A stretch of 53,882 bases of DNA from an uncultured Clostridia bacterium (GTDB lineage: Bacteria > Bacillota > Clostridia > Christensenellales > Aristaeellaceae), in assembly GCA_945877525.1 (NCBI GenBank), contig CAMDVP010000001.1:1-53882 (forward strand). Direction: 5' to 3'. The notes under the pieces are model-generated. The model was not told the DNA's origin and searched no databases. It worked only from the letters and a program-made list of their open reading frames with translations. Every line of letters begins with the position of its first letter. The first letter of the stretch is position 1. The translations under genes and the position numbers were made by a program. Below, in pieces: positions 13,385 to 53,747 of this stretch.

Positions 13385-13436
13385 GGGTACCTCAATTCTC
13401 GCAGGGGCAAGGCTTGCCCCTGACGAGAGAAGGACA

Positions 13437-23227: not shown

Positions 23228-25627
23228 TCACGACGCATTGACCTCCGTAGGCTTCGTCGTCATGATGCTGTACAGCTTGGTATTCTTCGGGAACCGATCC
23301 TGGAAAGGCAGAATGACGTTGCCGTAGAACAGCAGGCCCTCGCCTTCGCCGCTCTGGGTGACATAGGACAGCTGATGCGGGGAAATGCCCAGCTTCTTTG
23401 CCAGAATCTCACGATCACCCGCCGCCTGGTTGAGCATGTAGATGTAGTCGCTGTTCTCGAAGATGTTCTCGATTTCCTGACTGGCCAGAAGATCTTTCAC
23501 GTTCTGCGTGATGCCCGTCGGGATGCCACCCCACTTTCGGAATCTCTTCCAGATTTCCACGGAGTATGCCGACGTCTGCTCTTCTTTGAGCAGCAAGTGG
23601 AACTCGTCCATGTAGTACCGGGTGGATTTGCCTTCAGCGCGGTTGGCGGTGACGCGGCCCCATACCTGATCCTGCACGATGAGCATACCCAGCTTCTTGA
23701 GCTGCTTGCCCAGCTCCTTGATGTCGTAGCAGACCAGCCGGTTGTTCACGTCCACGTTGGTACGATGGTTGAACACATTCAGGGAGCCGGTCACGTAGAT
23801 TTCCAGCGCAGTGGCCAGCGTCTGCGCTTCCTTTTCCTCCTGCTCTCTCAGGGCGTTGTACAGATCCTCCAGAATGGGGATGTTCTCCGGCCTCGGGTCG
23901 CTCAGGTAGGGCTGATAGATGATGTGCACCGCACGGTCGATGATGGTCTTCTCAATGGGCTGCAGTCCGTCGCGCCCGCCGACGATCAGCTCGCACAGCG
24001 ATAAAATGAAATCGGACTTGAGCGCCAGCGGATTGTCATCATCACTGTAGTTGAGGTTGATATCCATCGGGTTGATGTAGCTGTTGCTGGACGGGGAAAT
24101 GCGAATCACCTGTCCGCGGAATGTCTTGACCAGAGGGTAATACTCGCCCTCGGGATCACAGATGATGATGTCATCATCGGTCAGCAGAATGACGTTGCAG
24201 ATCTCGCGCTTTGCCGCAAACGATTTGCCGGAGCCCGGCGTGCCCAGAATCAGGCCGTTCGGATTCTTCAGCTTCTTGCGATCCACCATGATCAGGTTGT
24301 GGGACAGGGCGTTCAGCCCGCAGTACAGCGCCTCGCCGCCGGACTGGAACAATTCCTGCGAGGTGAAGGGTATGAAGATCGCGGTGGACGAGGTCGTCAG
24401 CCCGCGTTGAATGCTGATTTTGTTGAGGCCAAGCGGCAGGCAGGATACCATGCCGTTTTCCTGCTGAAAATCCAGCGGTATCAGCTGGCAGTTGTGCTGC
24501 TGGGCAAGGCTCTGCGCCTGTTTGACATTGAGCGCAAGCTGCTTCTTATTGTCCGCCGTATTCATCACCAGGAAGGTGATGAGGAACATGCGCTCGTTGC
24601 GGCTCTGCAAATCTTCCAGCAGCTTCTTTGCTTCGCCGCCGTAGGTGGCCAGATCGGACGGAATAATGTCCATGTCATATCCGGCACGGACGGCCTTCTT
24701 CTGTTCCTCGATCTTCATCTTATCGAGGTCGGTGATCTTGCGCTTCACATCCCGTATGGCCGCCACCTGGTCGATGGCCTGAATGTGCAGGGACACGACG
24801 AGGCTGGATTCCATGGCGAGGAAGTCCGCAAGGCAGCGGTCGTTGAGATCAGAAGCCAGAATCGAAAAGAAACTGACTGCCGCTTGCTTCTTTCCCATGC
24901 CAAAGCTGCGCTTTTCGCGGAAATCAAAGCTGGACGGCGCGATGAAGTCCTTGGTGGACAGGCCGGAGGGCGGCAGCCACTTCCAGTCGAACAGGAAAGG
25001 TGCCTGGGTGTCCATGTGGAACATATCGTGCATCAGCTTCAGCCGCTCATGCCCGTCAAGCGGAGATGCCGAAACTCCCAGCCGCTTGAAGTTGTTCAGC
25101 AGGTCGATCTCTATGCGCTCCAGCCTCGGCTTTGCGGTCTTGATGTTCTCCGCGTTCACCCCGAAGGTGATGTACTTGGTCTTGGTCAGACCGTTGTTGC
25201 CCTTAGCCTGTTGGTTCTGCAGCATTTCCGCATACTCGTGGCGGATTTCATTGTTACCGTCATCCCTGTCGGGAATCAGAATGCTCTGCTCAAAGGCTTC
25301 CGAGCCGGCAGTCAGATCAAGGAACGAAAACTGCAGGTGAATGCTGCTGTCGAAATAATTGAGGAAATCGCACCAGCCCTCGAAGATCGCCGTCTTATCA
25401 TCGTTCTGCGCGAGCTGATAATTGATGTCCTGAAACTGGATGGTCTTGGTGTAATACTGATCCGTGACGCGGCAGATGCCGTCCGGCCACATGCGCTGAT
25501 AGGGAATGGTGTCCTGTGCGGTATGCGGCCCCTTCTTGCCCTTCTGCTGATTCCGGGCCATGAGCGCCTTGAGCTGCTGCTTTTCTGCGCGCGTCAGCTT
25601 GATCTTCTTAGTGTGGTGATTTACCAT
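23228..25627 (-). CDS. virB4: VirB4-like conjugal transfer ATPase (CD1110 family)
   Basis: 799 aa with Walker A GTPGSGKSF and Walker B-like IIICDPEGEY. Its position next to PrgI and the VirB6-like gene fits. Confidence 0.9.
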   Translation of the reverse strand: MVNHHTKKIKLTRAEKQQLKALMARNQQKGKKGPHTAQDTIPYQRMWPDGICRVTDQYYTKTIQFQDINYQLAQNDDKTAIFEGWCDFLNYFDSSIHLQFSFLDLTAGSEAFEQSILIPDRDDGNNEIRHEYAEMLQNQQAKGNNGLTKTKYITFGVNAENIKTAKPRLERIEIDLLNNFKRLGVSASPLDGHERLKLMHDMFHMDTQAPFLFDWKWLPPSGLSTKDFIAPSSFDFREKRSFGMGKKQAAVSFFSILASDLNDRCLADFLAMESSLVVSLHIQAIDQVAAIRDVKRKITDLDKMKIEEQKKAVRAGYDMDIIPSDLATYGGEAKKLLEDLQSRNERMFLITFLVMNTADNKKQLALNVKQAQSLAQQHNCQLIPLDFQQENGMVSCLPLGLNKISIQRGLTTSSTAIFIPFTSQELFQSGGEALYCGLNALSHNLIMVDRKKLKNPNGLILGTPGSGKSFAAKREICNVILLTDDDIIICDPEGEYYPLVKTFRGQVIRISPSSNSYINPMDINLNYSDDDNPLALKSDFILSLCELIVGGRDGLQPIEKTIIDRAVHIIYQPYLSDPRPENIPILEDLYNALREQEEKEAQTLATALEIYVTGSLNVFNHRTNVDVNNRLVCYDIKELGKQLKKLGMLIVQDQVWGRVTANRAEGKSTRYYMDEFHLLLKEEQTSAYSVEIWKRFRKWGGIPTGITQNVKDLLASQEIENIFENSDYIYMLNQAAGDREILAKKLGISPHQLSYVTQSGEGEGLLFYGNVILPFQDRFPKNTKLYSIMTTKPTEVNAS

Positions 25628-27105: not shown

Positions 27106-27133
27106 GCCCTCTCCCGGAACCCCGGGAGAGGGC
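27106..27133 (-). promoter_or_regulatory. Perfect 12-bp GC-rich stem-loop between the Maff2 and VirB6-like genes
   Basis: GCCCTCTCCCGG-aacc-CCGGGAGAGGGC. No U-tract follows on the minus strand; the next gene's SD follows immediately. Confidence 0.6.
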
Positions 27134-27385: not shown

Positions 27386-29239
27386 TTATAAAAGGCCGCC
27401 ATATCCGGCAGCCTGTAGCTGAGTTGTATCCGTCCATTCCTCCAGAAGCGCCTCATCGTCCCGCGAGTTATCGCTTATGGATATCTCGAATGCCTCGTAC
27501 TCCTCTTCCAGCCTGAGTTTCAACTGGCGTGACAGGTACTTCTCGATGTCAAAGGCGTTCCTCTTGTTGGAATCAGACAGATATTTGTAGTTGGGGTGAC
27601 TTGTGATGTCGTACTTATCCGACAAAAAGGGTCGGACGCCGCGCAGCTGGAGAATACATTTTCCTCCATCCATGACGGCGAGCTCGTCAATCGACATCAA
27701 AGATTTGCCGAGCTTTTGGTAATTGAGACTGTGAGAAATCTCACGTCCGCGGCTTTCGCCGGTGTTATATGTGTCGATGGTCTCCTTGCCGAGCAGCTCC
27801 TCCATCTCCTTGAGCGTAGTCTTCTCCTTGCCGCCCAGGAACAGCAACGTGTCGCAGTTACCGGTGATGGTATCAGCGTTGTCCTTGTAGATGGACTTGA
27901 GCTGACTCTGTGCCTGCAGGATGATACTGGCGGAGATCTCACGGCTGCGGATGGTGGCGATGAGCTTTTCAAAATTGGGGATCTGTCCGATGTTGGCAAA
28001 CTCATCAATCAGGCAGCGGACATGCACCGGCAGCCTGCCGCCGTATACATCGTCTGCCTTTTCGCAGAGCAGATTGAACAGCTGACTATAGGCCAGGCTG
28101 ATGAGAAAGCTGAAGCTGGCATCCGTATCCGACATGATCAGGAACAGCGCGGTTCGCTTGTCGCCGATGGTGTCCAAGGACAGCTCATCGTAGGAAGTGA
28201 TCTCCCGCAGCTCCTCGATGTCAAAGACGGCAAGGCGCGCGCCGCAGCTCACCAGAATGGACTTTGCCGTTTTGCCGGACGCCATCTTGTACTTCTGGTA
28301 TTGCCGAACCGCAAAGTGCCCCGGCTTCCGCTGAGCAAGATCGTCGAATATCTCATCAATCTCGTTGCGAAAGTCCTCGTCGTCCTCCCGCACCTGCATC
28401 TTGTCCAGCATGTCGATCAGCGTCGCAAAGTTCTGCTTCTCCTGTGGTAGCTCATAATGGATGTAGCCGATCAGGGCGATGTACAGCAGCGTTTCGGCCT
28501 TGACCCAAAAATCCTCTCCGGCTTTGCCTTCACCCTTGGTGTTGGCAATCAAAGCCGTGACGAGCTTCAGGATGTCCGTTTCGCTGTGGATGTACGAGAG
28601 TGGATTGTAGTGCATCGACTTTTTGAAGTTGATGGTGTTGAGAATACGCACGTCGTAGCCAGCGGCAGCCAGCATCTTGCCGCACTCCACGACAAGGGTT
28701 CCCTTCGGATCAGTTACTACGAGGGAGGTGCCCTTGGTCTTGGTGCATTGCATGATGTTGGGCTTTACGAAGAATCTCGTTTTGCCGCTGCCGGAGCCGC
28801 CGATGACGAGCACGTTTTTATTGCGCGCATATTGCGGATTCTTAGGACGACTGTTCATCGTCAGGCGCTCGGTTTTCGTGAGGATCACGTTGTTCCATGG
28901 GTCCGGGTCAATGAACGGCTGAATATCGCCGGGCTTGCCCCATCTGGCAGAGCCATATTCAACGTTGTGCCGGTACTTCTTGGCATTCCTGCCTTTTTCG
29001 TAGACGACCAGCCGCAGCAGGCAGCCAAGGGTGATGCCCAACAGAAGGTCTGCGGGAACAAAGCTGGGCCAGGGTGAGCGAAACGCTGCGGCAAAACCGT
29101 CCATGAGGTGGAGCAGCTTTCCCGACATGTCCGTTCCCTCAGCCAAGCGCCATGCCTCTCCCAGCTTGGTGGCATACAGACCGATGAGCACATAGGGAAG
29201 ATTGAGGATCAGCAGCTTCTTGAGCTGTGCTTTGTTCAT
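27386..29239 (-). CDS. virD4: VirD4-like type IV coupling protein (CD1115 family)
   Basis: N-terminal TM segments and Walker A VIGGSGSGKTRF. ATG at 29239 forms an ATGA overlap with the pcfB stop. Confidence 0.9.
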   Translation of the reverse strand: MNKAQLKKLLILNLPYVLIGLYATKLGEAWRLAEGTDMSGKLLHLMDGFAAAFRSPWPSFVPADLLLGITLGCLLRLVVYEKGRNAKKYRHNVEYGSARWGKPGDIQPFIDPDPWNNVILTKTERLTMNSRPKNPQYARNKNVLVIGGSGSGKTRFFVKPNIMQCTKTKGTSLVVTDPKGTLVVECGKMLAAAGYDVRILNTINFKKSMHYNPLSYIHSETDILKLVTALIANTKGEGKAGEDFWVKAETLLYIALIGYIHYELPQEKQNFATLIDMLDKMQVREDDEDFRNEIDEIFDDLAQRKPGHFAVRQYQKYKMASGKTAKSILVSCGARLAVFDIEELREITSYDELSLDTIGDKRTALFLIMSDTDASFSFLISLAYSQLFNLLCEKADDVYGGRLPVHVRCLIDEFANIGQIPNFEKLIATIRSREISASIILQAQSQLKSIYKDNADTITGNCDTLLFLGGKEKTTLKEMEELLGKETIDTYNTGESRGREISHSLNYQKLGKSLMSIDELAVMDGGKCILQLRGVRPFLSDKYDITSHPNYKYLSDSNKRNAFDIEKYLSRQLKLRLEEEYEAFEISISDNSRDDEALLEEWTDTTQLQAAGYGGLL

Positions 29240-29721
29240 CGCTCCATCCCCTTCTGGCGGATGCGCTCCACCTTCTTGCCCGGCGTTTCTCTGGTCGGAT
29301 CGAGCGTCGGTTCGGTGGCAAAGCGCTCCTGCTTTTGCTGCCTGGCCCATGCAACCGAGTAGGCAGCCATCGCCTGATTGATCGCGCTCCGGTCGCGCGC
29401 CTTGAAGTACAGGATGTATCGAGGCTTGCCATCCTGAGAGAAGCCCTTCTGGATGGCGTAGTCCACACCGTATTGCCGGGCATACCGGTCAAAGGATTTC
29501 GCCTCGTTCCGGTCAGCCAGCTCGGTGTTTTCAACGCCCTGATTCTGCGCGATGAGCTGCTTCACGGACTGTTTTCCCTGAGGCTTCACGTTCTGATGCT
29601 CCCGTACCTTGTTTTTGGAGTACCGCAGAAACTTCATGAACGCAGTCGCCAGCGTGCGCGCGGTCAGTTTGCTTGTGTTGATGATCAGGGTAAGCGATTT
29701 GTTTTCAATGTCTTCCTGCAT
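29236..29721 (-). CDS. pcfB: PcfB-family protein (DUF3801)
   Basis: GKQSVKQLI...ARQYGVDYAIQK...YILYFKARD pattern, located immediately upstream of the coupling protein gene. Confidence 0.7.
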   Translation of the reverse strand: MQEDIENKSLTLIINTSKLTARTLATAFMKFLRYSKNKVREHQNVKPQGKQSVKQLIAQNQGVENTELADRNEAKSFDRYARQYGVDYAIQKGFSQDGKPRYILYFKARDRSAINQAMAAYSVAWARQQKQERFATEPTLDPTRETPGKKVERIRQKGMER

Positions 29722-32621: not shown

Positions 32622-32691
32622 TTGATTGCCTCTTTTCTGAATAGGAATAGGTAAGGAAAAGGCAGCGGTTTGGCCCGCTGCCTTCTTCAGT

Positions 32692-38543: not shown

Positions 38544-39482
38544 TCATCGTTCTTGTGCTCTCTGGCGGCTTCTCAGCCAGTTATCCAGCAGCTTTATGAT
38601 GACCTTTTCCATCTGCTTCGCCGTATAGGATTTGGGGAAATACTTTTTCAGCGTGTCATGGCTGAGCGTGACCGAGTTATAAAGAGGTTTCTTTTCCTCC
38701 GACATGATCTCCATCACGCCCTGCTCCGACAGCGTTCCTTCTTTGCTTTCCTTTTTGATACGTTGGGCCTGCGAAAGCGAGGGAGTCTGTTGCGTGACTT
38801 CAAGCGCGTTTTGCAGCCACTGCTGCTCCTCCGGCTTCAAATAGGAAAGCTCAACGGCGGGCGTAAAGGCCAGTTCGCCGCTATCCACCTTATCACGCAA
38901 GGGCTGTTCGAGGCTGTTAAGCCGGATATAGCGATGAATCTGATTCTTACTATCCGGGGCATCTTCAGCCAAAATTTCAAGCGAGCGCTTACCATCGGAA
39001 TTGTTCCCAAGTTGGGAACAATTTTCTCTTGAAGGCCGACCAGCCTTTCTTCTGATGGCTTCCAGCTTCATCTGATATGCCTTTGCCCGTTCACTTGGCA
39101 GGATATTCTCGCGTTGGAGATTGCTGTCCACCATGATGATTACCGATTCATCATCATCGAGGTCGCGGACAATAACCGGCATGGTGTCCATGCCTGCCAG
39201 CTCACAGGCACGTTTTCGCCGGTGTCCTGCGACGATCTCATACCCGCCATCCTCCATAGGACGCGCAATGGCCGGCACCAGCACCCCATACGCCTTGACG
39301 CTCTCCACGGTTTCCATCATGCGATCATCATCCACAACGCGGAATGGATGATCTTTGAATGGATGCAGCTCAGAAAGAGGGATCTGCTGAATCTGTTCCC
39401 GCGCATCTGCCTGCCGTGTTTCCTCCGTGGAAAAGAGATCATCGTATGAGGTCAGACTGATGTTTCTGCCGCTGCCTTTCAA
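38544..39482 (-). CDS. parB: ParB/Spo0J-family partition/nuclease-like protein
   Basis: ParB N-terminal domain: IPLSELHPFKDHPFRV...YEIVAGHRRKRACELAG...DSNLQRENILPSE. Confidence 0.85.
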   Translation of the reverse strand: MKGSGRNISLTSYDDLFSTEETRQADAREQIQQIPLSELHPFKDHPFRVVDDDRMMETVESVKAYGVLVPAIARPMEDGGYEIVAGHRRKRACELAGMDTMPVIVRDLDDDESVIIMVDSNLQRENILPSERAKAYQMKLEAIRRKAGRPSRENCSQLGNNSDGKRSLEILAEDAPDSKNQIHRYIRLNSLEQPLRDKVDSGELAFTPAVELSYLKPEEQQWLQNALEVTQQTPSLSQAQRIKKESKEGTLSEQGVMEIMSEEKKPLYNSVTLSHDTLKKYFPKSYTAKQMEKVIIKLLDNWLRSRQRAQER

Positions 39483-40263
39483 GCTGCAACACCTCCTTTG
39501 TCAGCGCATGATATGCCTGCGCAACCTTGCCCGCAGGATCATGTGCGAAGATGCTTTTTCCCTCGGCGCTGATTTCCGCCGCGCGTACTGAACGGGGAAT
39601 CTCTGTATCAAACACCTTGATTCTGGAACCATAGGTGCTGCGAAGCAGGGAAGCAATCTCGCGGCTGTTGTTTGTACGGCTGTCAACCATGGTCAGCAGA
39701 ACGCCATCGATGCGCAGCTTGTGGTTGATGTTTCGCTTCACGCGGGCAACAGTAGCCAAAAGCTGCTCAACGCCTTTTGCCGAAAGATACTGAGCCTGGA
39801 CAGGAATGATAATCCGATCAGCAGCAGCCAGTGCGTTGATCGTCAGCATTCCGAGCGAAGGACCACAGTCCAGCAGAATGTGATCATAGTCTTTGCGGTA
39901 ATTGGCAAGCACCTGCTTGAGTGTAGTCTCCCTGCTCATGGCGTTGACGAGGGACACTTCCATGCCAGCCAGCGTAATGTTCGCAGGAAGAATATCCACG
40001 CCTTCCTCATGGTGAAGAATACCCTCCCCATGAGAAAGTGGCACATCATTGAGTACCTTGCACATGAGATCGCTCAGCGTCACTGGCAGGGCATCTGGCT
40101 GAGAATGGCCAAGACTGATGGTCGCACTACCTTGGGGATCACAATCAGCGATGAGCACCTTCTTTCCTTCACGGGCGAGGTCAATACCCAGGTTTACGCA
40201 ACTGGTCGTTTTACCGGTACCGCCCTTCTGGTTGACAATCCCGATAATGTTTGCTTCGGCCAT
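39439..40263 (-). CDS. parA: ParA-family ATPase
   Basis: Deviant Walker A NQKGGTGKTT. ATG at 40263 follows AAAGGAGG. The 3' end overlaps parB by 44 nt. Confidence 0.9.
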   Translation of the reverse strand: MAEANIIGIVNQKGGTGKTTSCVNLGIDLAREGKKVLIADCDPQGSATISLGHSQPDALPVTLSDLMCKVLNDVPLSHGEGILHHEEGVDILPANITLAGMEVSLVNAMSRETTLKQVLANYRKDYDHILLDCGPSLGMLTINALAAADRIIIPVQAQYLSAKGVEQLLATVARVKRNINHKLRIDGVLLTMVDSRTNNSREIASLLRSTYGSRIKVFDTEIPRSVRAAEISAEGKSIFAHDPAGKVAQAYHALTKEVLQLERQRQKHQSDLIR

Positions 40264-40378
40264 GATCAAACCTCCTTTCGTTGGGCCAGCCATAATAGAT
40301 AATCATCCGTCGTGAAGGATAAAGAAAAGCACCAGGCTGCGTGGCCTGATGCTCTCTCGTCCTTTTTTGACAGTTTAC

Positions 40379-40407: not shown

Positions 40408-40443
40408 GCGACTTTTGGCGACATCGTGCGACATCATGCGACA
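40408..40443. repeat. Four direct GCGACA repeats at exact 10-bp phasing upstream of the parA promoter
   Basis: GCGAC(T/A) starts at 40408, 40418, 40428 and 40438. It reads TGTCGC on the coding strand of parA. Confidence 0.7.
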
Positions 40444-40447
40444 ACTT

Positions 40448-40906
40448 TCAGGAATCGTTTCGGGACAAACTCGAGAGATCACCGTTCTCGATCAGATCGT
40501 TAAGCTTAATCTGAAATTCAGCCAATGCGTCAATCATACGGCGCTCAATCTGCCGCCTCGACAAAAACAGGACAACCCCAAGCTCTTTCACAGATTTTCC
40601 TTCGATAAAGCGTCCGGAAAGCACGGTTGCATATTCGGGCTCCATTTTATCCAGTATGGTCAGGATTTCCCTCTGCCGTTTACACATACTGTTTCTCAGC
40701 TCCGAGATTTCTTCTTCGATATCGAGGATCATCGCCATTGTATCGGCCATTGTACTGACATTCGTGGTATGTGAGACCCGCTCCTTGTCCATTGGCGCAG
40801 TGATATTGCCTAAAGAGTCCCGCAGATGCTGTGCCTGGCGGATTTTGAGCTGTATTTTTTTCTCCATTGTTCGGATTGAATCAAGATAATCAAATGCCTT
40901 CAACAT
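40448..40906 (-). CDS. Sigma-70 region-4-like HTH protein (DUF1492/ArpU/RinA-like activator)
   Basis: C-terminus ATVLSGRFIEGKSVKELGVVLFLSRRQIERRMIDAL. ATG at 40906 follows GGAGGTG. Confidence 0.55.
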   Translation of the reverse strand: MLKAFDYLDSIRTMEKKIQLKIRQAQHLRDSLGNITAPMDKERVSHTTNVSTMADTMAMILDIEEEISELRNSMCKRQREILTILDKMEPEYATVLSGRFIEGKSVKELGVVLFLSRRQIERRMIDALAEFQIKLNDLIENGDLSSLSRNDS

Positions 40907-41174
40907 TGCCCAACACCTCCAAATCAAGCATCTTCAGAATTGCGGGGCCATTGTCCAGCCCGCTGAGTTTTTGGTACCAGATACCGAAGAAAAACTGGCT
41001 GATCGAGGTCATTTGTTGTCGGATATGCTTTTGCTCAGGGATACTTGGACTCTTATCAAGCTTCTTTGCCAAGTGTCTGTAATCGTCAGCAGCCTGTTTA
41101 ATCACAGCAATAGCAAGCTCCTGATAAGGATCACAAACCTGATTATCAGTTGTTTCAGGATGGATCAGCTTCAT
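40890..41174 (-). CDS. Hypothetical protein
   Basis: 94 aa with SD GGGAGGAAACGA and an ATGA overlap with the upstream gene. Confidence 0.5.
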   Translation of the reverse strand: MKLIHPETTDNQVCDPYQELAIAVIKQAADDYRHLAKKLDKSPSIPEQKHIRQQMTSISQFFFGIWYQKLSGLDNGPAILKMLDLEVLGNVEGI

Positions 41175-41932: not shown

Positions 41933-43969
41933 TTACGTCCTCCATTCTTCGGGAAGTTCGGCATCATCGACAGGCGTGAATTCGTGCATGGAGACTTGGG
42001 AAATTCTCTCGCTCCATGCGTGCTGTGGCGGTAAGCCCTTAACATCCGACATGGTTCGACTGCGTTTGTCGAAATACAGCATTACCATTTCATCCACTAC
42101 GCCAAGGTCACGGTTTTTCATGATCTCCAGCGCATTTCCTGTACCATCAGGAATGACCAGCTTGGGGTACACCATCTTGTAGCGTGATAGAAAATCTGCA
42201 TTGATCCGGTGAACCATGAATACATTGTCCGCTACATTGGTAATGTCGGACGTGCCACTGATGTCTCCTTTACGAAGAAATGCTTCGGTTTTGCGCGGGT
42301 GACAGATGAAGTGCAGATGGATGTTCAGTTCCTTTGCCATTGCTGAAAACCGCTTGACAATTCGCGTCTGCATATCGTATTTGTCCAGTGCACCGGTGGG
42401 AAGATCCAGCGCCATCAGGTTATCAATGATGGCAACAGATGCGCTGTTCTGCTTGACCCAGTCATAGACCGTATTCAACACTACTTCCCAGTCCGTTCCG
42501 AAGTCGTTGTCGTAGATGGCGAGCATACCGGAAAGCATGTCGTCCAGCTTTTGTTCGATACCCGGCTTCAGGCAATAGTGTCCGTGGCTCAACTTATCGG
42601 CTTCAACATTCTCTGGCCCCGCTGCTTGAAGAAGAATCCACTCGCGGACGCGGGATGCTGTCATTTCCCCAGAGAATAGTGCCACCTTGTATCCCTGAGT
42701 GATAGCAGCCAGCCCCAGCTGGCTCACGAGCGTACTCTTCCCGGATGCGTTGCTGCCACTCCAAACAGATAACTCACCTTTATTGAATCCACCAATCTTG
42801 GCATCCAGCTTGTCCAGGCGGGACCGTATCACGACGATTTTGCTGCGGTCATAGTTTGGAATTGAAGCAAAATCCAGCATCCGCGGATGAGTAGCCCCGC
42901 CCTCTATCGGGGATGAGCCAGACTGTGTTACCATTCTCTTTGGGGGCTCAAGAATTTTCGCAGCCTTATGGATGGAATAGGGGCTGTTTGCGTATGCTTC
43001 TGGATCGAGCTTCTCACGGAATTCGTGCCAATGATAGCCGGAGCAACTGTTGTGGAAACAGTGAAAGCCAAAGCTGCCGTCGTTGTAAGCAAATACCGCA
43101 GCATCACCATTGCGATGCGTACTATCAAAGGGACACTCTTCAAGCTGGTATTTGGTGCCGGTACTTATGACGATCTTCTTCAGGACTTGCACGGAATGGT
43201 CTGCCAGAAACTGCTCAAGGTTGAAAGCCTTTCCGTTGCGCTGCTTCGGATTCTCCGATGCCGATACCATGTCGCGGCGCACATTCGCTATGTTCTGTAC
43301 AAGCGCCATGGATGTTTCCTTAACCGGGTTGGGGTAACGGATTATCCTGCTGAAGCGATGCGGGCGTTCCGGCGTATCAGCGCCTTTTTGTGCCAATGTA
43401 CCATATAGCTTGGTTATCCGCGCTGGGTTAAACACAGAAGTGTCAATCTTTACGGTATCCGTGCTGAACCACATATCGAGTACCGCCAGCAAGTCGGCGA
43501 GTACTTGTTTTTCGTTGAGGCCTGCGTGAATCCTGAACAGAAGGTGATAGCCGTTGCCACTATCAGCGACGATCGGCTCACTGAAACCCATCGCCATCAG
43601 TTTCTTCATGGCTGTTCCCGCCACCTTACGGGCAGCTTCCTTCTCAGCCTTGGACGAACTGATACCGCTTGGCCTTACGGGATCGGCATCTACCAGAATC
43701 CATTGGTATCCGACAATGTCATTATCGCTGGTTGTTACATTCGGGCGCTCAACCAGCCTTTCATGCTGTTCTCTGGAATAGCACCCCTTCTTGATTCTGT
43801 TCAGTGTCTGATAAAAGGTTCTGTTAGGATACCGACTGAGCTCAGATTGAATGGCAGGACTGTTTGCTCTGAAGTAGCCGCTGACGATAGGCTTTGGCTC
43901 AATACTCCGAATTTCTACGATGTCCTCAGGGGCGTGGAGGAGGGAAAGCCAGTTTACCGAGAAACCCAT
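41933..43969 (-). CDS. Primase-helicase: AEP (Prim-Pol)-type primase, Cys/His zinc module and DnaB/RecA-like helicase ATPase
   Basis: AEP motifs WILVDADPVRP and ADSGNGYHLLF. Zinc-like module CPFDSTHRNG...FHCFHNSCSGYHWHEF. Walker A GSNASGKST and Walker B VAIIDNLMAL. ATG at 43969 follows GAGGAGGAAGAACT. Confidence 0.8.
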   Translation of the reverse strand: MGFSVNWLSLLHAPEDIVEIRSIEPKPIVSGYFRANSPAIQSELSRYPNRTFYQTLNRIKKGCYSREQHERLVERPNVTTSDNDIVGYQWILVDADPVRPSGISSSKAEKEAARKVAGTAMKKLMAMGFSEPIVADSGNGYHLLFRIHAGLNEKQVLADLLAVLDMWFSTDTVKIDTSVFNPARITKLYGTLAQKGADTPERPHRFSRIIRYPNPVKETSMALVQNIANVRRDMVSASENPKQRNGKAFNLEQFLADHSVQVLKKIVISTGTKYQLEECPFDSTHRNGDAAVFAYNDGSFGFHCFHNSCSGYHWHEFREKLDPEAYANSPYSIHKAAKILEPPKRMVTQSGSSPIEGGATHPRMLDFASIPNYDRSKIVVIRSRLDKLDAKIGGFNKGELSVWSGSNASGKSTLVSQLGLAAITQGYKVALFSGEMTASRVREWILLQAAGPENVEADKLSHGHYCLKPGIEQKLDDMLSGMLAIYDNDFGTDWEVVLNTVYDWVKQNSASVAIIDNLMALDLPTGALDKYDMQTRIVKRFSAMAKELNIHLHFICHPRKTEAFLRKGDISGTSDITNVADNVFMVHRINADFLSRYKMVYPKLVIPDGTGNALEIMKNRDLGVVDEMVMLYFDKRSRTMSDVKGLPPQHAWSERISQVSMHEFTPVDDAELPEEWRT

Positions 43970-44874
43970 AGTTCTTCCTCCTCGTCTTCTGCAGGCATAA
44001 CATAGTCTCGCCAGGTTTCTTTTTGCAGCCATTTGCTTATCCCCGGAATGAACCTTCCACCATCCTGCTGCCATGACTCAGAACACTTCGCAGCATTAAG
44101 GGCATCCATAATGGCTTGCGGTGTGGCTCCAAGAGAGATTGCCATTTGATACTGTCGAACTGCCTCGCTACGATCTGTGCGTCGGTCTTCAGGATAGGCG
44201 CACCACAACCCAACAAACCCATCCGGTTCACTTGAAAAGCATGTATTATTCTTATATTCTTGGTTAGGCCTAATTATTGGGCCACCACCGGCATGATTAT
44301 TAGGCCACTGTGGCCCGGTTTCTGGGCCATCGCCGGCCTGATTATTGGGCCACTGTGGCCTAATTTCCGAGCCACTCCCGGCCTGATTATTGGGCCACTG
44401 TGGCCTAATTTCCGAGCCATTCCCGGCCTGATTATTGGGCCACTGTGGCCTGGTTTCCGGGCCACAGGCGGTCTGATTATTGGGCCACTGTGATACGTGT
44501 GTTGTAACGGTAAGCGATTGGTTCCCTGACTCTTCTGAACTACCTGTTCTACGGCTGGTATAGCTGTCGAGCCAGCTCGTGACCCGAACCAGTGTTCCTG
44601 AGGATGTCTTTTTCATACAGATGCAACCAAGTTGCTCGAGTTCTGCGAATTTCTTTGCCAGTTTCTCGCGTGACCAGCGAAGTTCTGCAGCAGCATGACG
44701 AATAGACATTGGGAACTCGCCCGGATTGATTTTGTGTCCCTGCCAGAAATACGTATTCCAACTGGCTTTATACAGGCAGTAGTGATACAGCTTGAATAAG
44801 CCGTCATCGGGCCATATTGGACTACTTTGGAGGGACGGATACGACTTGACAAATCGCTCGTCCTTACTTGCCAT
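43954..44874 (-). CDS. Putative replication initiator/replisome organiser (winged-helix N-terminus, five 15-aa repeats, DnaD-like C-terminus)
   Basis: Its position directly upstream of the primase-helicase gene fits. The C-terminus reads WCAYPEDRR..SEA...Y......G...QAIMDAL......SWQQDGGRFIPGISKWLQKETWRDY. ATG at 44874 follows AAGGAGATTGTC. Confidence 0.55.
   Translation of the reverse strand: MASKDERFVKSYPSLQSSPIWPDDGLFKLYHYCLYKASWNTYFWQGHKINPGEFPMSIRHAAAELRWSREKLAKKFAELEQLGCICMKKTSSGTLVRVTSWLDSYTSRRTGSSEESGNQSLTVTTHVSQWPNNQTACGPETRPQWPNNQAGNGSEIRPQWPNNQAGSGSEIRPQWPNNQAGDGPETGPQWPNNHAGGGPIIRPNQEYKNNTCFSSEPDGFVGLWCAYPEDRRTDRSEAVRQYQMAISLGATPQAIMDALNAAKCSESWQQDGGRFIPGISKWLQKETWRDYVMPAEDEEEELWVSR
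44268..44492. repeat. About five tandem 45-bp repeats inside the initiator gene, each carrying the 13-bp palindrome GGCCACTGTGGCC; candidate iterons
   Basis: The palindrome occurs at 44303, 44348, 44393 and 44438, exactly 45 bp apart, with a truncated copy at 44483. Adjacent units differ by only 0-3 nt. Confidence 0.8.
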
Positions 44875-44987: not shown

Positions 44988-45425
44988 TCAGGGATGAATC
45001 ATCCCAAAGAGGAGGCTGCTCAGCAGCAAGCGTGCCTGCTGCTCATATTCCTCGTCCGGAAGCTGATCATTGCGGCATTCTTCTGCGCCATCACCTTCAT
45101 CATCATCCGGTTCATGCTGCCAACGCACTTCACCCTGTTCATCTGCTGCTTCGTCCGCTTCATATTCCTCATCATGCACATCATTGATTTCCTCCTCCGT
45201 TTCAATCACGGTGTCATTCTGATCATCGGTCACAAAGTGGCTGGAAACGTGAGCACACACATGCTCATTTACACAATACTCATGGATTGTCTCAATTCCC
45301 GATGTCTGGACAGCGCTTCCGAGCGACTGCTTCACGATATCAACAGATACAATAGTTTTGTTGGAACACAAAACTAATGAGGTGCTGGCAGCGTGATGAA
45401 GTGTGTTGTGAATCCTGTGCTGCAT
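44988..45425 (-). CDS. Hypothetical, strongly acidic protein
   Basis: Excellent SD AAGGAGGAAATCA. The C-terminal half is D/E-rich (DDQNDTVIETEEEINDVHDEEYEADEAADEQGE...DDDEGDGAEE). Confidence 0.55.
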   Translation of the reverse strand: MQHRIHNTLHHAASTSLVLCSNKTIVSVDIVKQSLGSAVQTSGIETIHEYCVNEHVCAHVSSHFVTDDQNDTVIETEEEINDVHDEEYEADEAADEQGEVRWQHEPDDDEGDGAEECRNDQLPDEEYEQQARLLLSSLLFGMIHP

Positions 45426-45514: not shown

Positions 45515-45994
45515 TCAGAAAAAAAGCTCTTTGTTCGCACGCAGCTGAGTAAGAAGCTTGAGCAGACGCCGGTTGATGCAGGAGTGTGACACATGCATCA
45601 GTCGCGCGATTTCTCGTTTTGAACGATGCTGCATGTAATGCATGGTCAACAGTGTGGCGCCAGATTCTGTGACCTGGTTGGCAAACTGCATGATTTCGTT
45701 GATGGTGTCCTTAAGCAAGAAGTCAGCTTCAATGTCTGTATCATCGACAAGGTTATATCGCGCTTCGGCTTCTTCAAAGTTTTCAATGATTCCCATACAT
45801 TTCCAGCGACATAGCTGACAATCACCACAGCAGAGCGAGTAGTTTGGCTGCGCACAACGATGTTCACGACGAGCTAAGTATCTGACATGGTTGTTTTCCT
45901 TGCGGATAGCTTTGATAACAGATTCGGGAACAGGTATTCTCTCTCGATTGATCGTAAGGTACATCGTGCTGACATGGTCAGCGGCCTGAGGCAT
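45515..45994 (-). CDS. Sigma-70 region-4-type HTH regulator with Cys-rich N-terminal part
   Basis: C-terminus ATLLTMHYMQHRSKREIARLMHVSHSCINRRLLKL and an N-terminal CCGDCQLCRWKC cluster. AAAGGAGGG lies 8 nt upstream of the ATG at 45994. Confidence 0.6.
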   Translation of the reverse strand: MPQAADHVSTMYLTINRERIPVPESVIKAIRKENNHVRYLARREHRCAQPNYSLCCGDCQLCRWKCMGIIENFEEAEARYNLVDDTDIEADFLLKDTINEIMQFANQVTESGATLLTMHYMQHRSKREIARLMHVSHSCINRRLLKLLTQLRANKELFF

Positions 45995-48302: not shown

Positions 48303-49544
48303 TTATGAGTACATCATACTGGGCATGTGAACCAAATGCCGGTCATCTTTAGGCATATGCAGATCACCCAGCAACGCAGCTGGAATAATTGCCTGATTGC
48401 CAAAGCGCCCACGTATTGCATCAATGCAATCGTCCAGTTTCTGCCTACGCATTCGCTTTTCCATGTCACCAAACATATCAATCTGAATGCTCTGCGTGCT
48501 TGATACCAGGTTGATTCCCGTAACAGTAATCGCGCGAACTGGCTTTAGCCAACGATACCGCTGATTGAACAGCAATCTCGCAGCCTGAGCAATCTCAAGC
48601 GGACTCTGTGACGGGTATGAAAGCTGCGCCTGCGCGATTTCGTACCCCAATTCATTATCACGTACACAAACTCTTACCCCTCTTGCAGATAGCCCATAGC
48701 AGCGCAGACGATGCCCAATGTCCTGGGAAAGATCCAATATGACTTTCCAGACTTCATCCTCTGAGTGTAAGTCTGCATTACAGGTGATCCCGTGCCCGAC
48801 GCTTTTAATTGGTTCTTCATAGCCGTCCGGCTTGATTCTGTAGCGATCCTCTCCATTGGCAGTGATCCAGAGATCTATACCGTTTTTGCCAAACCAGCTC
48901 CGAAGATACTGTGGATCGGTATGGGCAAGGTCGCCAATTGTGAGTACGTTGCGATCCATGAGCTTCTTTGCTGTTCGGGGGCCAACAAAAAGCAGATCCG
49001 ATACGGGCAGTTGCCAAACACGCTCCCTCCAGTGTTCAGTATCCAGCACGGTAATGGCATCCGGCTTCTTCATGTCGCTCCCGAGTTTCGCTAAGATTTT
49101 GCTAAAAGAGACACCAATCGACACAGTAATGCCCAATTCATCTTTAACTGTTTGTCGAATGTCTTCGGCAATTTGGGTACCATTACCATGGATTTTGTCG
49201 CTTCCTGTAACATCGAGCCAGCATTCGTCCATGCCATAAGGTTCTACGAGATCTGTGTATCGACGATAGATATTTCGAAGCAGCATGGAAAAGCGATTGT
49301 ACTGCTCATAGTGTGGCGGAACACAGATCAGCCCCGGACAGGCTTGCCGTGCTTCCCAATTTGCTTGCCCCGTCTTCACGCCCATCCGCTTTGCCTTCTC
49401 GCTTTTCGCCAGGACGATTCCATGCCGATCATCCTCGCTTCCGCATACAGCGACGGCCTTGCCTTGCAGTTCCCGGTTGAGGAGCATTTCAACAGCGGCA
49501 TAAAAACAGTTCGCATCACTATGCAAGATAACGCGGTCGTTCAA
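48303..49544 (-). CDS. dinB: Y-family DNA polymerase (DinB/Pol IV-like)
   Basis: HSDANCFYAAVE, GIVLAKSEKAKRMGVKTG and MDECWLDVTG motifs. TTG start follows AAGGAGGTG. Confidence 0.85.
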   Translation of the reverse strand: MNDRVILHSDANCFYAAVEMLLNRELQGKAVAVCGSEDDRHGIVLAKSEKAKRMGVKTGQANWEARQACPGLICVPPHYEQYNRFSMLLRNIYRRYTDLVEPYGMDECWLDVTGSDKIHGNGTQIAEDIRQTVKDELGITVSIGVSFSKILAKLGSDMKKPDAITVLDTEHWRERVWQLPVSDLLFVGPRTAKKLMDRNVLTIGDLAHTDPQYLRSWFGKNGIDLWITANGEDRYRIKPDGYEEPIKSVGHGITCNADLHSEDEVWKVILDLSQDIGHRLRCYGLSARGVRVCVRDNELGYEIAQAQLSYPSQSPLEIAQAARLLFNQRYRWLKPVRAITVTGINLVSSTQSIQIDMFGDMEKRMRRQKLDDCIDAIRGRFGNQAIIPAALLGDLHMPKDDRHLVHMPSMMYS

Positions 49545-51182: not shown

Positions 51183-51413
51183 ATGCAAATGAACATCATG
51201 CAGGAACAGAAAACTACCCATATGACGCCTGCTGAATCCACCAAACCGGAACGGCGCTGCTATACCGTAGATGAAGTGATGGAATTTCTGGGCGTTGGAC
51301 GCAAAGCAGTTTATTCGCTGATTCACAGGAAGGCGTTCCCTGCCATTCGCATCAACAATCTGGGGTACCGCATTCCTAAGGAGTCTTTCAATTCCTGGCT
51401 GCTTCAGAAGTGA
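51183..51413 (+). CDS. xis: Excisionase-type (MerR-like HTH_17) small DNA-binding protein
   Basis: CYTVDEVMEFLGVGRKAVYSLIHRKAFPAIRINNLGYRIPKESFNSWL. SD is AAGGAGGAG. Confidence 0.7.
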   Translation: MQMNIMQEQKTTHMTPAESTKPERRCYTVDEVMEFLGVGRKAVYSLIHRKAFPAIRINNLGYRIPKESFNSWLLQK

Positions 51414-51506
51414 AGCAGCCAAGCTCGAAAGCTCATCGACAGCCTCAAACTTTTGCGAGCGCTGTGCTATCATCTTTATTAGCAGTCTGAAAGAAAGGGG
51501 GGAATC

Positions 51507-52322: not shown

Positions 52323-52340
52323 TTGAGAGGAGGACGTTCA

Positions 52341-53747
52341 ATGGCTTCAATTACGACGAGGAATGATCGCTTCTGCGTCATCTATTCATATGTTGATGAC
52401 AAGGGGAACCGGAGGCAGAAATGGGAAACCTTTCAGACACTACAGGAAGCGAAAGCGCGTAAAGCAGAAATCGAGTACAGTCAGCAGTTGGGAACCTTTA
52501 CGATTCCGAACTGCACTACTGTATCGGAACTTCTCTCTGAATATGTCTCTCTGTATGGAAAAACCAAATGGTCTATATCTGCATACACCGCGAACACAGC
52601 GCTTATTGCGCACTATATTGAGCCCTATCTGGGCAACCAGAAGATCAGAGAGATCACAGCACGGTCACTTGAAAAGTACTACCAAACGCTCCTCAAAACG
52701 CCGGCTGTACATAAAATGACGGATAGGAAGAGCAAAAAGACCAATACAACGGTAACGCCTTCAACGGTGCGCAGGGTTCATAGCCTGCTGAGAAGTGCCT
52801 TCAATCAAGCTGAGAAATGGGACTTGGTTGATAAGAATCCCGCTCGATATGCCACCGTCCCCAAGGCACAACCAAAGGAGCGTGAAATCTGGGATGCGTC
52901 CACACTCTTTCAGGCCATCGAATGCTGTGAGGACGAGCGGCTGAAGCTGTGCTTGAATCTGGCGTTCGCCTGTTCGCTCCGAATTGGTGAACTACTTGGC
53001 CTGACTTGGGACTGCGTTGATATTTCCGAAGAGAGTATTCTGAAAAACGAAGCGTCCATCTACATCAATAAGGAGTTGCAGCGTGTCAGTAAGAAGGCCA
53101 TGAAAACGTTGGAATCGAAGGATATCATCTACGCATTTCCTGAACAGGGGCAAGGAAACAAAACGCAGTTGGTTCTGAAGAAGCCGAAAACTCTTTCCAG
53201 TGTCCGTAAGGTATTCCTTCCAACGTCGGTTGCCAAAATGCTTGTTGCATGGAAGATGGAGCAGGATGCAATTATTGAGGCCATCGGAAGCGAATATGCG
53301 GATTACAAGCTGGTTATTGCAACCGCTAATGGCTTGCCCACTGAAGCATCCCGCATCAGAAAAGCGATGAAAGACCTTATCGCCGATAATGACCTTCCTC
53401 CGGTAGTGTTTCACAGTCTGCGTCACTCAAGCATCACCTATAAGCTCAAGCTGAATGGTGGCGACATCAAGGCTGTGCAAGGTGATTCCGGGCATTCTCA
53501 GGCACAGATGGTTACTGACCAGTATTCGCACATTCTCGACGAAAACCGGCGGCAAAATGCGCAGCTTGTCGAAAGGGCGTTTTATCAGGGGAAAGGTGCC
53601 GAAGTAGCCAGCATTGATCAGAAGGAGAGGTCTTCTGCAGCTGAGCAGGCAGCTGCGTCCGGTATCGATGCGGAGCTGTTGATGAAGATACTCAGCAACC
53701 CTGAGATGGTAAAGGTATTGCAGATGCTCTCGAAAACTGTGGGGTAA
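52341..53747 (+). CDS. int: Tyrosine recombinase/integrase with Tn916-Int-like arm-binding N-terminus
   Basis: SLRIGELLGLTW (Arg), HSLRHS (HxxR) and GHSQAQMVTDQYSHI (catalytic Tyr region). ATG at 52341 follows GGAGGA. Confidence 0.9.
   Translation: MASITTRNDRFCVIYSYVDDKGNRRQKWETFQTLQEAKARKAEIEYSQQLGTFTIPNCTTVSELLSEYVSLYGKTKWSISAYTANTALIAHYIEPYLGNQKIREITARSLEKYYQTLLKTPAVHKMTDRKSKKTNTTVTPSTVRRVHSLLRSAFNQAEKWDLVDKNPARYATVPKAQPKEREIWDASTLFQAIECCEDERLKLCLNLAFACSLRIGELLGLTWDCVDISEESILKNEASIYINKELQRVSKKAMKTLESKDIIYAFPEQGQGNKTQLVLKKPKTLSSVRKVFLPTSVAKMLVAWKMEQDAIIEAIGSEYADYKLVIATANGLPTEASRIRKAMKDLIADNDLPPVVFHSLRHSSITYKLKLNGGDIKAVQGDSGHSQAQMVTDQYSHILDENRRQNAQLVERAFYQGKGAEVASIDQKERSSAAEQAAASGIDAELLMKILSNPEMVKVLQMLSKTVG

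Follow-up and report, generated by a model that had tools for sequence, protein, structure and literature searches.

The putative initiator gene and its repeat array

On the evidence of its gene content, the whole 53,882-nucleotide stretch analyzed here (the window; contig CAMDVP010000001.1 of an uncultured Clostridia bacterium) is an integrative conjugative element (ICE). We describe a tandem array of 45-bp repeats located inside the gene of a putative replication initiator of this element, together with the AT-rich tract adjoining the array, and consider both as a candidate origin of replication. The genes concerned and the features of the array are the following.

43954 to 44874, minus strand: gene of a replisome-organizer/DnaD-like protein (putative initiator, 306 amino acids), assigned with PHROGs, AlphaFold2 (AF2), BFVD and tblastn
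41933 to 43969, minus strand: gene of a DnaB-like helicase of superfamily 4 (SF4) with a long N-terminal extension, about 678 amino acids, assigned with Pfam and PHROGs
44267 to 44492, minus strand: 45-bp array of five in-frame units (15-residue repeats), a candidate iteron array, from Tandem Repeats Finder (TRF) and codon-aligned units
44438 to 44450, unstranded: 13-bp palindrome GGCCAC-N-GTGGCC, copy 1, coding for R-P-Q-W-P (exact match; dyad scan, 6+1+6)
44393 to 44405, unstranded: 13-bp palindrome, copy 2 (exact match, dyad scan)
44348 to 44360, unstranded: 13-bp palindrome, copy 3 (exact match, dyad scan)
44303 to 44315, unstranded: 13-bp palindrome, copy 4 (exact match, dyad scan)
44483 to 44492, unstranded: truncated palindrome at the array's 5′ edge, taken in the coding direction (exact search)

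The array (period 45, 5.0 copies, 85% matches, score 289, G+C content (GC) 0.58) was by a wide margin the strongest tandem repeat detected by TRF in the window. An exact search of the whole window located GGCCACTGTGGCC only at 44303, 44348, 44393 and 44438, phased at exactly 45 bp, with the truncated copy GGCCACTGTG at 44483. The dyad scan resolved this sequence into two 6-bp arms around an unpaired central base, and it is a candidate site at which a winged-helix domain could bind as a dimer. The five units are translated as SQWPNNQTACGPETR, PQWPNNQAGNGSEIR, PQWPNNQAGSGSEIR, PQWPNNQAGDGPETG and PQWPNNHAGGGPIIR, following the form PQWPNNQAGxGxExR. They make up residues 128-202 of the protein, between a winged helix-turn-helix (wHTH) domain (residues 11-104) and a helical domain (residues 215-294). 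The units at 44404-44448 and 44359-44403 are one nucleotide apart (AAT/AGT, Asn/Ser); the remaining pairs differ by 7-12 nucleotides, and the differences are mainly non-synonymous. All of this agrees with the initial annotation, which had reported the exact 45-bp period, the palindrome positions, the fivefold translated repeat and the single-nucleotide difference between neighboring units. It had also called the segment linker-like, and AF2 gave residues 105-214 a confidence (pLDDT) of only 22-28 between two confidently modeled domains.

Over the whole window, palindromes with arms of at least 6 bp show no enrichment (59 versus 50.6 in shuffled sequences); six of the 59 fall within the one kilobase of the array. 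TRF also returned a 23-bp sub-period, and by eye the two halves of the 45-bp unit agree at about 15 of 22 positions. Out-of-frame sites at half-unit spacing could not be separated from the 45-bp periodicity and no claim is made for them.

Copy number and turnover of the repeat units

Searches retrieved 53 homologues, the lengths of which step by 15 residues (321, 306, 291, 276 and 261). Relatives are designated below by L and a number. The cluster at ≥90% that includes the window contains 306- and 291-residue forms, and the 291-residue members lack different units. Four to five units are present in this lineage. A sister clade (about 60% identity) carries its own 45-bp unit in two to six copies between flanking domains that are 92-100% identical at the DNA level. 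In a different sample, a pig gut metagenome (run X1), we found a 31-kb contig identical to the window over the 1-kb region save for a clean 45-bp skip, 44375 to 44421. The array shows live copy-number polymorphism.

As judged from these sequences, the number of units is unconstrained and the units are homogenized within a lineage. Recent duplication and loss of units explain the identity of neighboring units at wobble positions, so this identity is not by itself evidence of constraint. The initial annotation had taken it as conservation, which does not hold: otherwise identical genes carry four or five units. Since the differences between units are mostly non-synonymous, selection on the peptide appears to be weak, as would be the case for a tether, and the free variation in copy number suggests that the linker is dispensable. 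An unconstrained repeat number had been named beforehand as grounds for rejecting an origin. The number does vary, but this is no refutation, because phage lambda has four iterons and Stx phages have six in the same gene, which adds 13 residues to the O protein (PMC7466680).

In two distant clades, L001 and L042, the 15-residue units of the linker are replaced by a 12-bp repeat coding for EPQx (EPQT, EPQM or EPQS, 5-11 times). This repeat has no dyad excess, and it may represent either a different solution or a loss of sites in that branch.

Dyad symmetry in the repeat region

The 13-bp palindrome was evaluated against a null in which the peptide is fixed and synonymous codons are drawn from the usage of the element itself. 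Given the peptide, a 6+1+6 palindrome arises with P about 0.10, which is not significant; Pro-Gln-Trp-Pro flanked by Arg readily yields CCA...TGG and GG...CC. In L004 (91% identity) the palindrome is lost from one of four units through a synonymous CCA to CCG change and an R to K replacement, and clades at 52% and 43% identity lack it altogether. On the sequences compared, GGCCACTGTGGCC is a feature of the clade to which the window belongs and not the conserved element of the family, and this part of the initial annotation's argument does not hold as it was put. Under the same null a sister-clade unit with three overlapping dyads gave P of about 0.002 for the summed arms. When the 13-mer is aligned codon for codon with this clade (P0002), its counterpart is ACCGC-A-GCGGT, with two compensatory pair changes. 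A CCA/TGG to CCG/CGG exchange had been regarded as clean covariation and was dropped, as one L044 unit has CCG with TGG; family-wide counts were used instead.

Across the family each unit has one copy of a different dyad, placed where the repeat is most conserved, at Gly-x4-Pro (typically T-G-S-x-M-E-P). In the window it is represented as follows.

44447 to 44463, 44402 to 44418, 44357 to 44373, 44312 to 44328 and 44267 to 44283, minus strand: five G-x4-P dyads, identified from family covariation

The family dyad has the form GGNNNN-N5-NNNNCC and is often extended to TGGCTCCA-N3-TGGAGCCA or even to 10+1+10. Complementarity at all four pairs that are not fixed by Gly and Pro was found in 21 of 53 distinct family instances. 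The mean number of complementary free pairs was 2.85 of 4, compared with 1.06 of 4 where G-x4-P occurs in other parts of the element (shuffle P = 2e-4). At least five different pairs of arms are used: GGCTCC/GGAGCC, GGTTCC/GGAACC, GGATTC/GAATCC, GGCCTG/CAGGCC and GGTCTT/AAGACC. In an independent pair count 80.5% of cells were paired, compared with 69.4% in shuffles, and 62 cells with double changes were observed where shuffles gave 27.8 (neither value was reached in 500 shuffles). The covariation score was 0.367 and fell to 0.05-0.13 when partners were slid by 1-3 columns. Within the 4-6 kb flanks of any locus, no such dyads were found.

A second analysis permuted synonymous codons within each gene and compared the repeat region with the N- and C-domains as controls. 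The repeat region had a dyad excess of z = 3.3-3.6 in L029, L002 and L003 and 2.8 in L032; the window gave 3.6 and L044 gave 7.4. Because the units of L029, L002, L003 and L032 are old and diverged, their z values are not inflated by duplication. The control domains had no excess except for the N segment of L032 (z = 4.2), whose boundary, defined by the open reading frame (ORF), takes in upstream non-coding DNA before the real start.

Taken together, covariation and codon-level excess make it quite likely that in this family selection acts on the repeat region as a DNA element. The conserved peptide motif of the linker, G-S-x-M-E-P, can be read as translated TGGCTCCA-N3-TGGAGCCA.

The five window copies of the family dyad are GGCCCG..CAGGCC, GGCTCG..TAGGCC (twice), GGCCCA..CGGGCC and GGCCCA..TAGGCC. 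The 13-mer lies 11 bp 3′ of the G-x4-P dyad in the coding direction, and the two overlap, the 3′ arm of the dyad (AGGCC) reaching into the 5′ arm of the 13-mer.

Covariation of this kind is typical of base-paired stems, and the dyads might therefore act as hairpins in a single strand, either as priming or single-strand-origin signals on transferred or displaced DNA, used by primases of the element, or as mRNA structures for translation or decay. Arms of 6-8 nucleotides with a 5-nucleotide spacer would be stable, the element transfers as single-stranded DNA, and it encodes a CHC2 primase-like protein (2881-3951). Array RNA also folds better than shuffles (z = -3.5), although palindromic tandem repeats fold well trivially. 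Among the non-Watson-Crick pairs A.C is somewhat more frequent on the sense strand (20/57; equivalent to antisense G.T), but sense-strand G.U, which an mRNA structure would tolerate, is not enriched (12/57). Moreover, many dyads are complementary up to a 1-nucleotide center (6+1+6 in the window; 8+1+8 and 10+1+10 in L032, L036 and L044). Such inner pairs are unusable in a hairpin loop, unlike in a duplex, where a bound dimer can use them. Hairpins would also leave the AT-rich tract described below and the initiator/helicase context unexplained, and we consider them a very unlikely explanation.

The AT-rich tract beside the array

The coding sequence changes in composition immediately after the last repeat unit.

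44224 to 44268, minus strand: AT-rich tract adjoining the last unit on its 3′ side, coding for PNQEYKNNTCFSSEP, GC 0.33; a candidate DNA-unwinding element

The minimum is reached in the 30-bp window 44233-44262, with GC of 0.23 compared with 0.58 in the array. In 18 of 20 representatives, with gene GC ranging from 0.45 to 0.61, the 30-mer of lowest GC in the gene is found directly 3′ of the last unit. The peptide encoded there is not conserved (QEYKNNTCFS, GNKKEYIHSP, PIEKKSSTPL, HNINNNTINT and others). In the window, GC at third codon positions (GC3) is 0.21 in the tract and 0.51 in the rest of the gene; the family values are 0.28 and 0.56, with the difference present in 14 of 14 representatives (Wilcoxon 6e-5). 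At four-fold degenerate sites GC3 is 0.19 in the tract versus 0.55, again in 14 of 14. The repeat region has a normal GC3 (0.52), and the tract is lower in 11 of 11 comparisons (family means 0.30 versus 0.52-0.59). The AT enrichment therefore does not extend to the disordered segment at large.

An internal promoter was considered as the cause of the AT-rich tract and rejected, as a simple scan limited to sigma-70-like promoters found no match on the coding strand. One-mismatch matches to the DnaA box numbered eight in the window (8.0 expected), none of them near the array.

These data bear on the simplest explanation of the array, which is that it is a coding tandem repeat only: a disordered linker that changes by slippage or unequal recombination, with the palindromes as by-products of codons (GGN, CCN, TGG, NCC) and of duplication. 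This explanation would agree well with the predicted disorder of the linker, with the unconstrained copy number (4-5 versus 2-6 units, with independent unit losses) and with unit differences that are mostly non-synonymous. It would equally account for a window palindrome that is unremarkable given the peptide and is lost in one L004 unit, and for the five of twelve clades that have no dyad excess. What it leaves unexplained are the compensatory changes by which dyad arms covary between clades, the excess of dyads at codon level in the old and diverged units of L029, L002, L003 and L032, and the AT enrichment at four-fold sites, limited to the 45 bp after the array. Nor does it explain why the G-S-x-M-E-P motif reads as a translated DNA palindrome. 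On balance a purely coding repeat seems quite improbable.

The putative initiator protein and the adjacent helicase

The 306-residue ORF starts with an ATG preceded by AAGGAG 7 nucleotides upstream, at a start position common to all relatives. AF2 modeling with 20 relatives gave a confident winged-helix N-domain (residues 11-104; 44563-44844), a disordered linker corresponding to the repeat region, and a confident helical C-domain (residues 215-294; 43993-44232) with helices at residues 220-226, 235-247, 252-263, 266-270, 279-284 and 287-291. In PHROGs, residues 8-134 matched phrog_2514, 'DnaD-like helicase loader' (1.5e-11), and residues 209-298 matched phrog_9474 (7.2e-9) and phrog_270 (2.2e-9), 'replication initiation protein'. 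The top matches of a Foldseek search against viral models (BFVD) were phage proteins named 'Replisome organizer' (E of 1.3e-6 and below), with a single weak structural match annotated as GpO N-terminal (E 0.013). With tblastn the N-domain was 27-28% identical to genes of Staphylococcus aureus phages (2e-8), which are annotated as DnaD-like helicase loader, replication protein O or replication initiation protein.

The protein thus resembles the replisome-organizer/DnaD-like type, with remote similarity in sequence and in the model to phage organizers and DnaD-like loaders. No family in Pfam (E ≤ 0.01) or NCBIfam was assigned to it, a sequence search of the PDB with the single protein gave no match, and a PDB search with the family profile returned only weak GntR, FadR and Rrf2 winged helices. 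Foldseek against the PDB listed the RepA N-domain structures 4pt7 and 4pql as weak matches (E about 0.13). The 1.1-kb region had no nucleotide match among PLSDB plasmids or INPHARED phages, and the initiator has no name in any source checked. By sequence it is outside the Pfam families of lambda O, SPP1 gp38 and RepA_N; it is alike in architecture and function class.

The helicase gene lies directly downstream of the initiator gene with a 16-nucleotide overlap, and this synteny is kept in L044-L051. Its product matched Pfam DnaB_C (6.7e-14) and AAA_25 and the PHROGs 'DnaB-like replicative helicase' and 'DNA primase/helicase'. The ATG at 43969 was chosen from the ribosome-binding site and from relatives of 678-684 residues, the ORF being open back to 44074. 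The helicase is the presumed partner loaded at the origin; between the initiator and helicase genes no loader gene is recognizable. The N-terminal 400 or so residues of the helicase have no Pfam match. This extension contains ADSGNGYHLLFRI, which by eye is like an archaeo-eukaryotic primase-polymerase motif; if so, the protein would be a primase-helicase fusion.

Comparison with known intragenic origins

The three-part plan of the window protein has a close counterpart in Rep of plasmid pSK41 (319 residues), in which an N-terminal winged helix binds four Rep boxes central in rep, the origin-encoded central domain is a dispensable linker, and the two domains resemble DnaD in structure (PMC5703833). 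At 306 residues the window protein is of similar length, the residue ranges of its parts nearly coincide with those of Rep, and in the AF2 model it also has a compact helical C-domain; both replicons are carried by conjugative elements. The model likewise conforms to the general RepA_N plan of a winged-helix N-terminal domain, an origin-encoded linker and a five-helix C-terminal domain. However, the family has no PF06970 match and its fold similarity to RepA N-domains is weak. The window differs from pSK41 further in that its repeats are long, dyad-symmetric units of 45 bp in frame, in that the element encodes its own DnaB-like helicase where the pSK41 type relies on host DnaG and DnaC, and in that the element is integrative.

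In phage lambda, the parallel named in the initial annotation, iterons and an AT-rich tract are located in the middle of O, and replication is lost when the iterons are recoded synonymously (PMC7466680), which is the established test. As in the window, dyad repeats followed by an AT tract lie between a DNA-binding N-domain and a partner-binding C-domain, and the number of repeats varies between relatives and adds residues. In contrast to the window, lambda iterons are about 19 bp long with a spacing of about two turns and are not exact in-frame tandem copies, and lambda uses the P loader with host DnaB in a Gram-negative host. The window protein has no Phage_rep_O match and one weak GpO structural match.

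The best sequence and fold relatives of the window protein are replisome organizers of Firmicutes phages, such as SPP1 gp38 and the DnaD-like loaders of S. aureus phages, although the identity is about 27% and confined to the N-domain. The oriL of SPP1 lies within gene 38, is made up of direct repeats together with an AT-rich unwinding element, and works with a DnaB-family helicase (PMC6316719). In both SPP1 and the window the origin or candidate origin is inside the gene of the organizer itself and the gene of a DnaB-family helicase follows (PMC6316719). SPP1 differs in that its loader, gp39, is a separate protein and in that oriR serves as a second origin, and the context in the window is an ICE with ParAB, unlike that of SPP1 and the S. 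aureus phages.

Thus, as far as sequence and models allow it to be judged, the window has the repeats between the two domains and the flanking AT tract that characterize intragenic iteron origins, and in the family there are signs of constraint on the DNA independent of the peptide.

Operator or centromere, and candidate partition sites

Protein-binding sites need not be an origin. The array could be an autoregulatory operator, a copy-control locus acting by handcuffing or initiator titration, or a centromere for ParAB similar to sopC of plasmid F. The evidence for selected dyads suits any sequence-specific dimeric binder equally well. sopC consists of 12 units of 43 bp, each with an inverted repeat, and the window array resembles it in having units of about 43-45 bp arranged head to tail, each with a single short inverted repeat; the genes of ParA and ParB lie some 4 kb downstream. 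It is common in iteron replicons for one set of sites to be used in initiation as well as in copy control. Still, sopC is non-coding, is located directly after sopB and is bound by a ParB-type protein, whereas the window array is intragenic, is followed by an AT tract and, at about 4 kb from parA and outside the par operon, does not lie where a ParB centromere is expected. An AT tract at synonymous sites is a hallmark of an unwinding element and would be superfluous for an operator or a centromere. For an operator, the array would be oddly placed in mid-gene, far from any promoter to repress. For a centromere the element offers a much better candidate, the perfect palindrome inside parB listed below, and there is also a phased array of four GTCGC-N5 repeats at the parA promoter. 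We therefore regard binding sites with no origin function as unlikely.

38999 to 39023: perfect 25-bp palindrome AATTGTTCCCAA-g-TTGGGAACAATT (12+1+12) inside parB (38544-39482, minus strand)

The same place in parB holds a different perfect 13+1+13 palindrome in two relatives, AACTTCGTCGCAA-g-TTGCGACGAAGTT in L044 (11848-11874) and AACTTCTCGCCAA-g-TTGGCGAGAAGTT in L001 (12348-12374), in both cases with compensatory changes. From this pattern the palindrome is likely to be a parS centromere embedded in parB, which would make it the second cis-acting site of the element within a coding region. Upstream of parA (39439-40293, minus strand), at about 40411-40450, are four repeats phased at 10 bp, GTCGCATGAT GTCGCACGAT GTCGCCAAAA GTCGCGAGAC. 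They precede a TATAAT-like box, TRF lists them at 40418-40443, and they are a candidate par operator or partition site.

A putative replication origin inside the initiator gene

The tandem dyads, which appear to be selected as DNA, and the synonymous AT tract lie in the linker of a winged-helix initiator with the helicase gene next to it. For these reasons we favor the view, with moderate confidence, that array and tract form the vegetative, theta-type replication origin of the element inside its own initiator gene. Here too the initial annotation was right in part: an intragenic iteron origin is favored by the covarying dyads, the codon-level excess, the AT tract and an initiator-type protein encoded beside a helicase, but the 13-mer and the wobble identity fall away as evidence for it.

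According to the proposed mechanism, the N-terminal winged helix would bind, as a dimer or higher oligomer, to dyad sites placed every 45 bp; covariation is what suggests that these are binding sites. In the window the sites would be GGCCAC-N-GTGGCC, perhaps in combination with the degenerate GGNNNN-N5-NNNNCC dyad that overlaps it. The nucleoprotein complex formed by the 306-residue protein might then destabilize the neighboring AT-rich tract (44224-44268), and the DnaD-like helical C-domain might recruit or load the helicase encoded at 41933-43969. By these steps the excised circular element would be copied autonomously and subsequently segregated by ParA and ParB. The 15-residue peptide repeats would be mainly translated DNA sites, with a flexible tether as their sole role in the protein. 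Repeats that are a mere tether would explain why unit number and sequence change freely beside constant flanking domains.

Several observations weigh against an origin at this place. A spacing of 45 bp corresponds to about 4.3 helical turns, so that successive sites are not on one face of the helix. The 6+1+6 palindrome of the window is not significant given the peptide and is broken in one L004 unit, and the G-x4-P dyads of the window are degenerate (3/4, 1/4, 1/4, 3/4 and 3/4 free pairs), the two with 1/4 belonging to its youngest units. Five of the twelve clades (L010, L018, L022, L042 and L001) have no dyad excess, and in two of them the units have given way to the 12-bp repeat. Kinship within the family means that the shuffle statistics overstate independence, though the slid-partner control argues against kinship as the whole explanation, and peptides rich in Gly, Pro, Ser and Thr (GGN with NCC codons) raise the odds of a dyad over those in random sequence. 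As to the protein, Foldseek against the PDB found generic wHTH regulators only (E ≥ 0.03), and none of RepA_N (PF06970), DnaB_2, Phage_rep_org_N and Phage_rep_O was detected in 20 family members even at E ≤ 5.

A literature search on iterons and theta replication in ICEs gave no account of replication in this ICE family. An origin inside the initiator gene is a classical arrangement (lambda, SPP1, staphylococcal plasmids) and, on this search, has not been described for this family of elements; the advance is in the placement and the evidence, as the principle is already known. Three points go beyond routine annotation: exact in-frame 45-bp units with copy-number polymorphism at the population level, the evidence that a peptide motif is a translated palindrome, and the indication of a full replicon with its own segregation system. 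If the proposed origin is real, it places the vegetative origin of an ICE family often met with in gut metagenomes of pigs, humans and ruminants, the replication functions of which are unannotated. These ICEs would then carry a complete phage- or plasmid-like replicon (initiator, intragenic origin, helicase and ParAB), which bears on their persistence after excision and on incompatibility. It would also be a natural case of overlapping codes, in which an array of DNA palindromes dictates a peptide repeat. Arm covariation combined with AT enrichment at synonymous sites gives usable signatures for origins in uncultured elements, and for annotation it is a warning that peptide repeats in the linkers of initiators may be DNA features.

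A more far-reaching and rather doubtful possibility is that the array serves as a rapidly evolving specificity module with a dual coding role. Turnover of units and concerted change of the dyad and of the winged-helix recognition surface would create new groups of replication specificity (incompatibility), and the number of units would tune episomal copy number. Were this true, G-S-x-M-E-P in the linker would be a translated DNA palindrome and no protein motif, incompatibility groups would arise among related ICEs with common gut hosts, and widespread ICEs of gut Clostridia would be kept partly as phage-like theta episomes, beyond integration and rolling-circle copying.

The host element and its other genes

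ICEs are copied mostly along with the chromosome. Some relatives of the window are embedded in larger contigs (216 kb and 1.73 Mb) and are therefore integrated; since the element is integrative, a private replicon would act on the excised form. Relatives were found in human, pig and ruminant gut metagenomes and in Clostridia metagenome-assembled genomes (MAGs). A collection of species-representative genomes held only three distant relatives, all of them Clostridia MAGs.

The core genes of the ICE code for a relaxase (235-1716), a VirB4-like protein (23228-25627), VirD4 (27386-29350) and TrbL_2 (TrbL/VirB6-like). The genes from 235 to 48287 are all on one strand. Two further genes are listed here.

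52323 to 53747: tyrosine integrase
2881 to 3951: CHC2 zinc-finger primase-like protein

In addition the element encodes a 2565-residue SNF2/methylase protein, topoisomerase III, SpaA-type surface proteins with a sortase, ParB, ParA, a Y-family polymerase and an ImmR/ImmA-like pair.

Directly upstream of the initiator gene is a conserved ORF of 145 residues (44988-45425, minus strand), the C-terminal half of which is extremely acidic, with runs of D and E. It had no match in Pfam, PHROGs or NCBIfam and is syntenic in all close relatives, between a gene for a sigma-70 region-4-like protein (45515-45994) and the initiator gene. Two small proteins similar to sigma-70 region 4 or to extracytoplasmic function (ECF) sigma factors are encoded in the maintenance region, at 40448-40927 and 45515-45994, both on the minus strand. 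One gene is upstream of parA and the other upstream of the replication genes, and they may code for element-specific transcription factors.

The gene of the Y-family polymerase (IMS) is intact in the window (48303-49544, 413 residues). In L044 (1-2573, compared with L045 1332-2573) only the C-terminal part of the gene is left, and in front of it lies a group II intron reverse transcriptase/maturase (RVT_1, Intron_maturas2, HNH), which suggests insertion of an intron into this gene. Long perfect inverted repeats occur at 13402-13422 (10+1+10), 27106-27133 (12+4+12), 32659-32684 (10+6+10) and 51396-51421 (11+4+11). Some of them are intergenic, such as the one at 13402-13422 in the gap between the gene of the 2565-residue protein and an HTH gene, and these may be terminators or protein sites.

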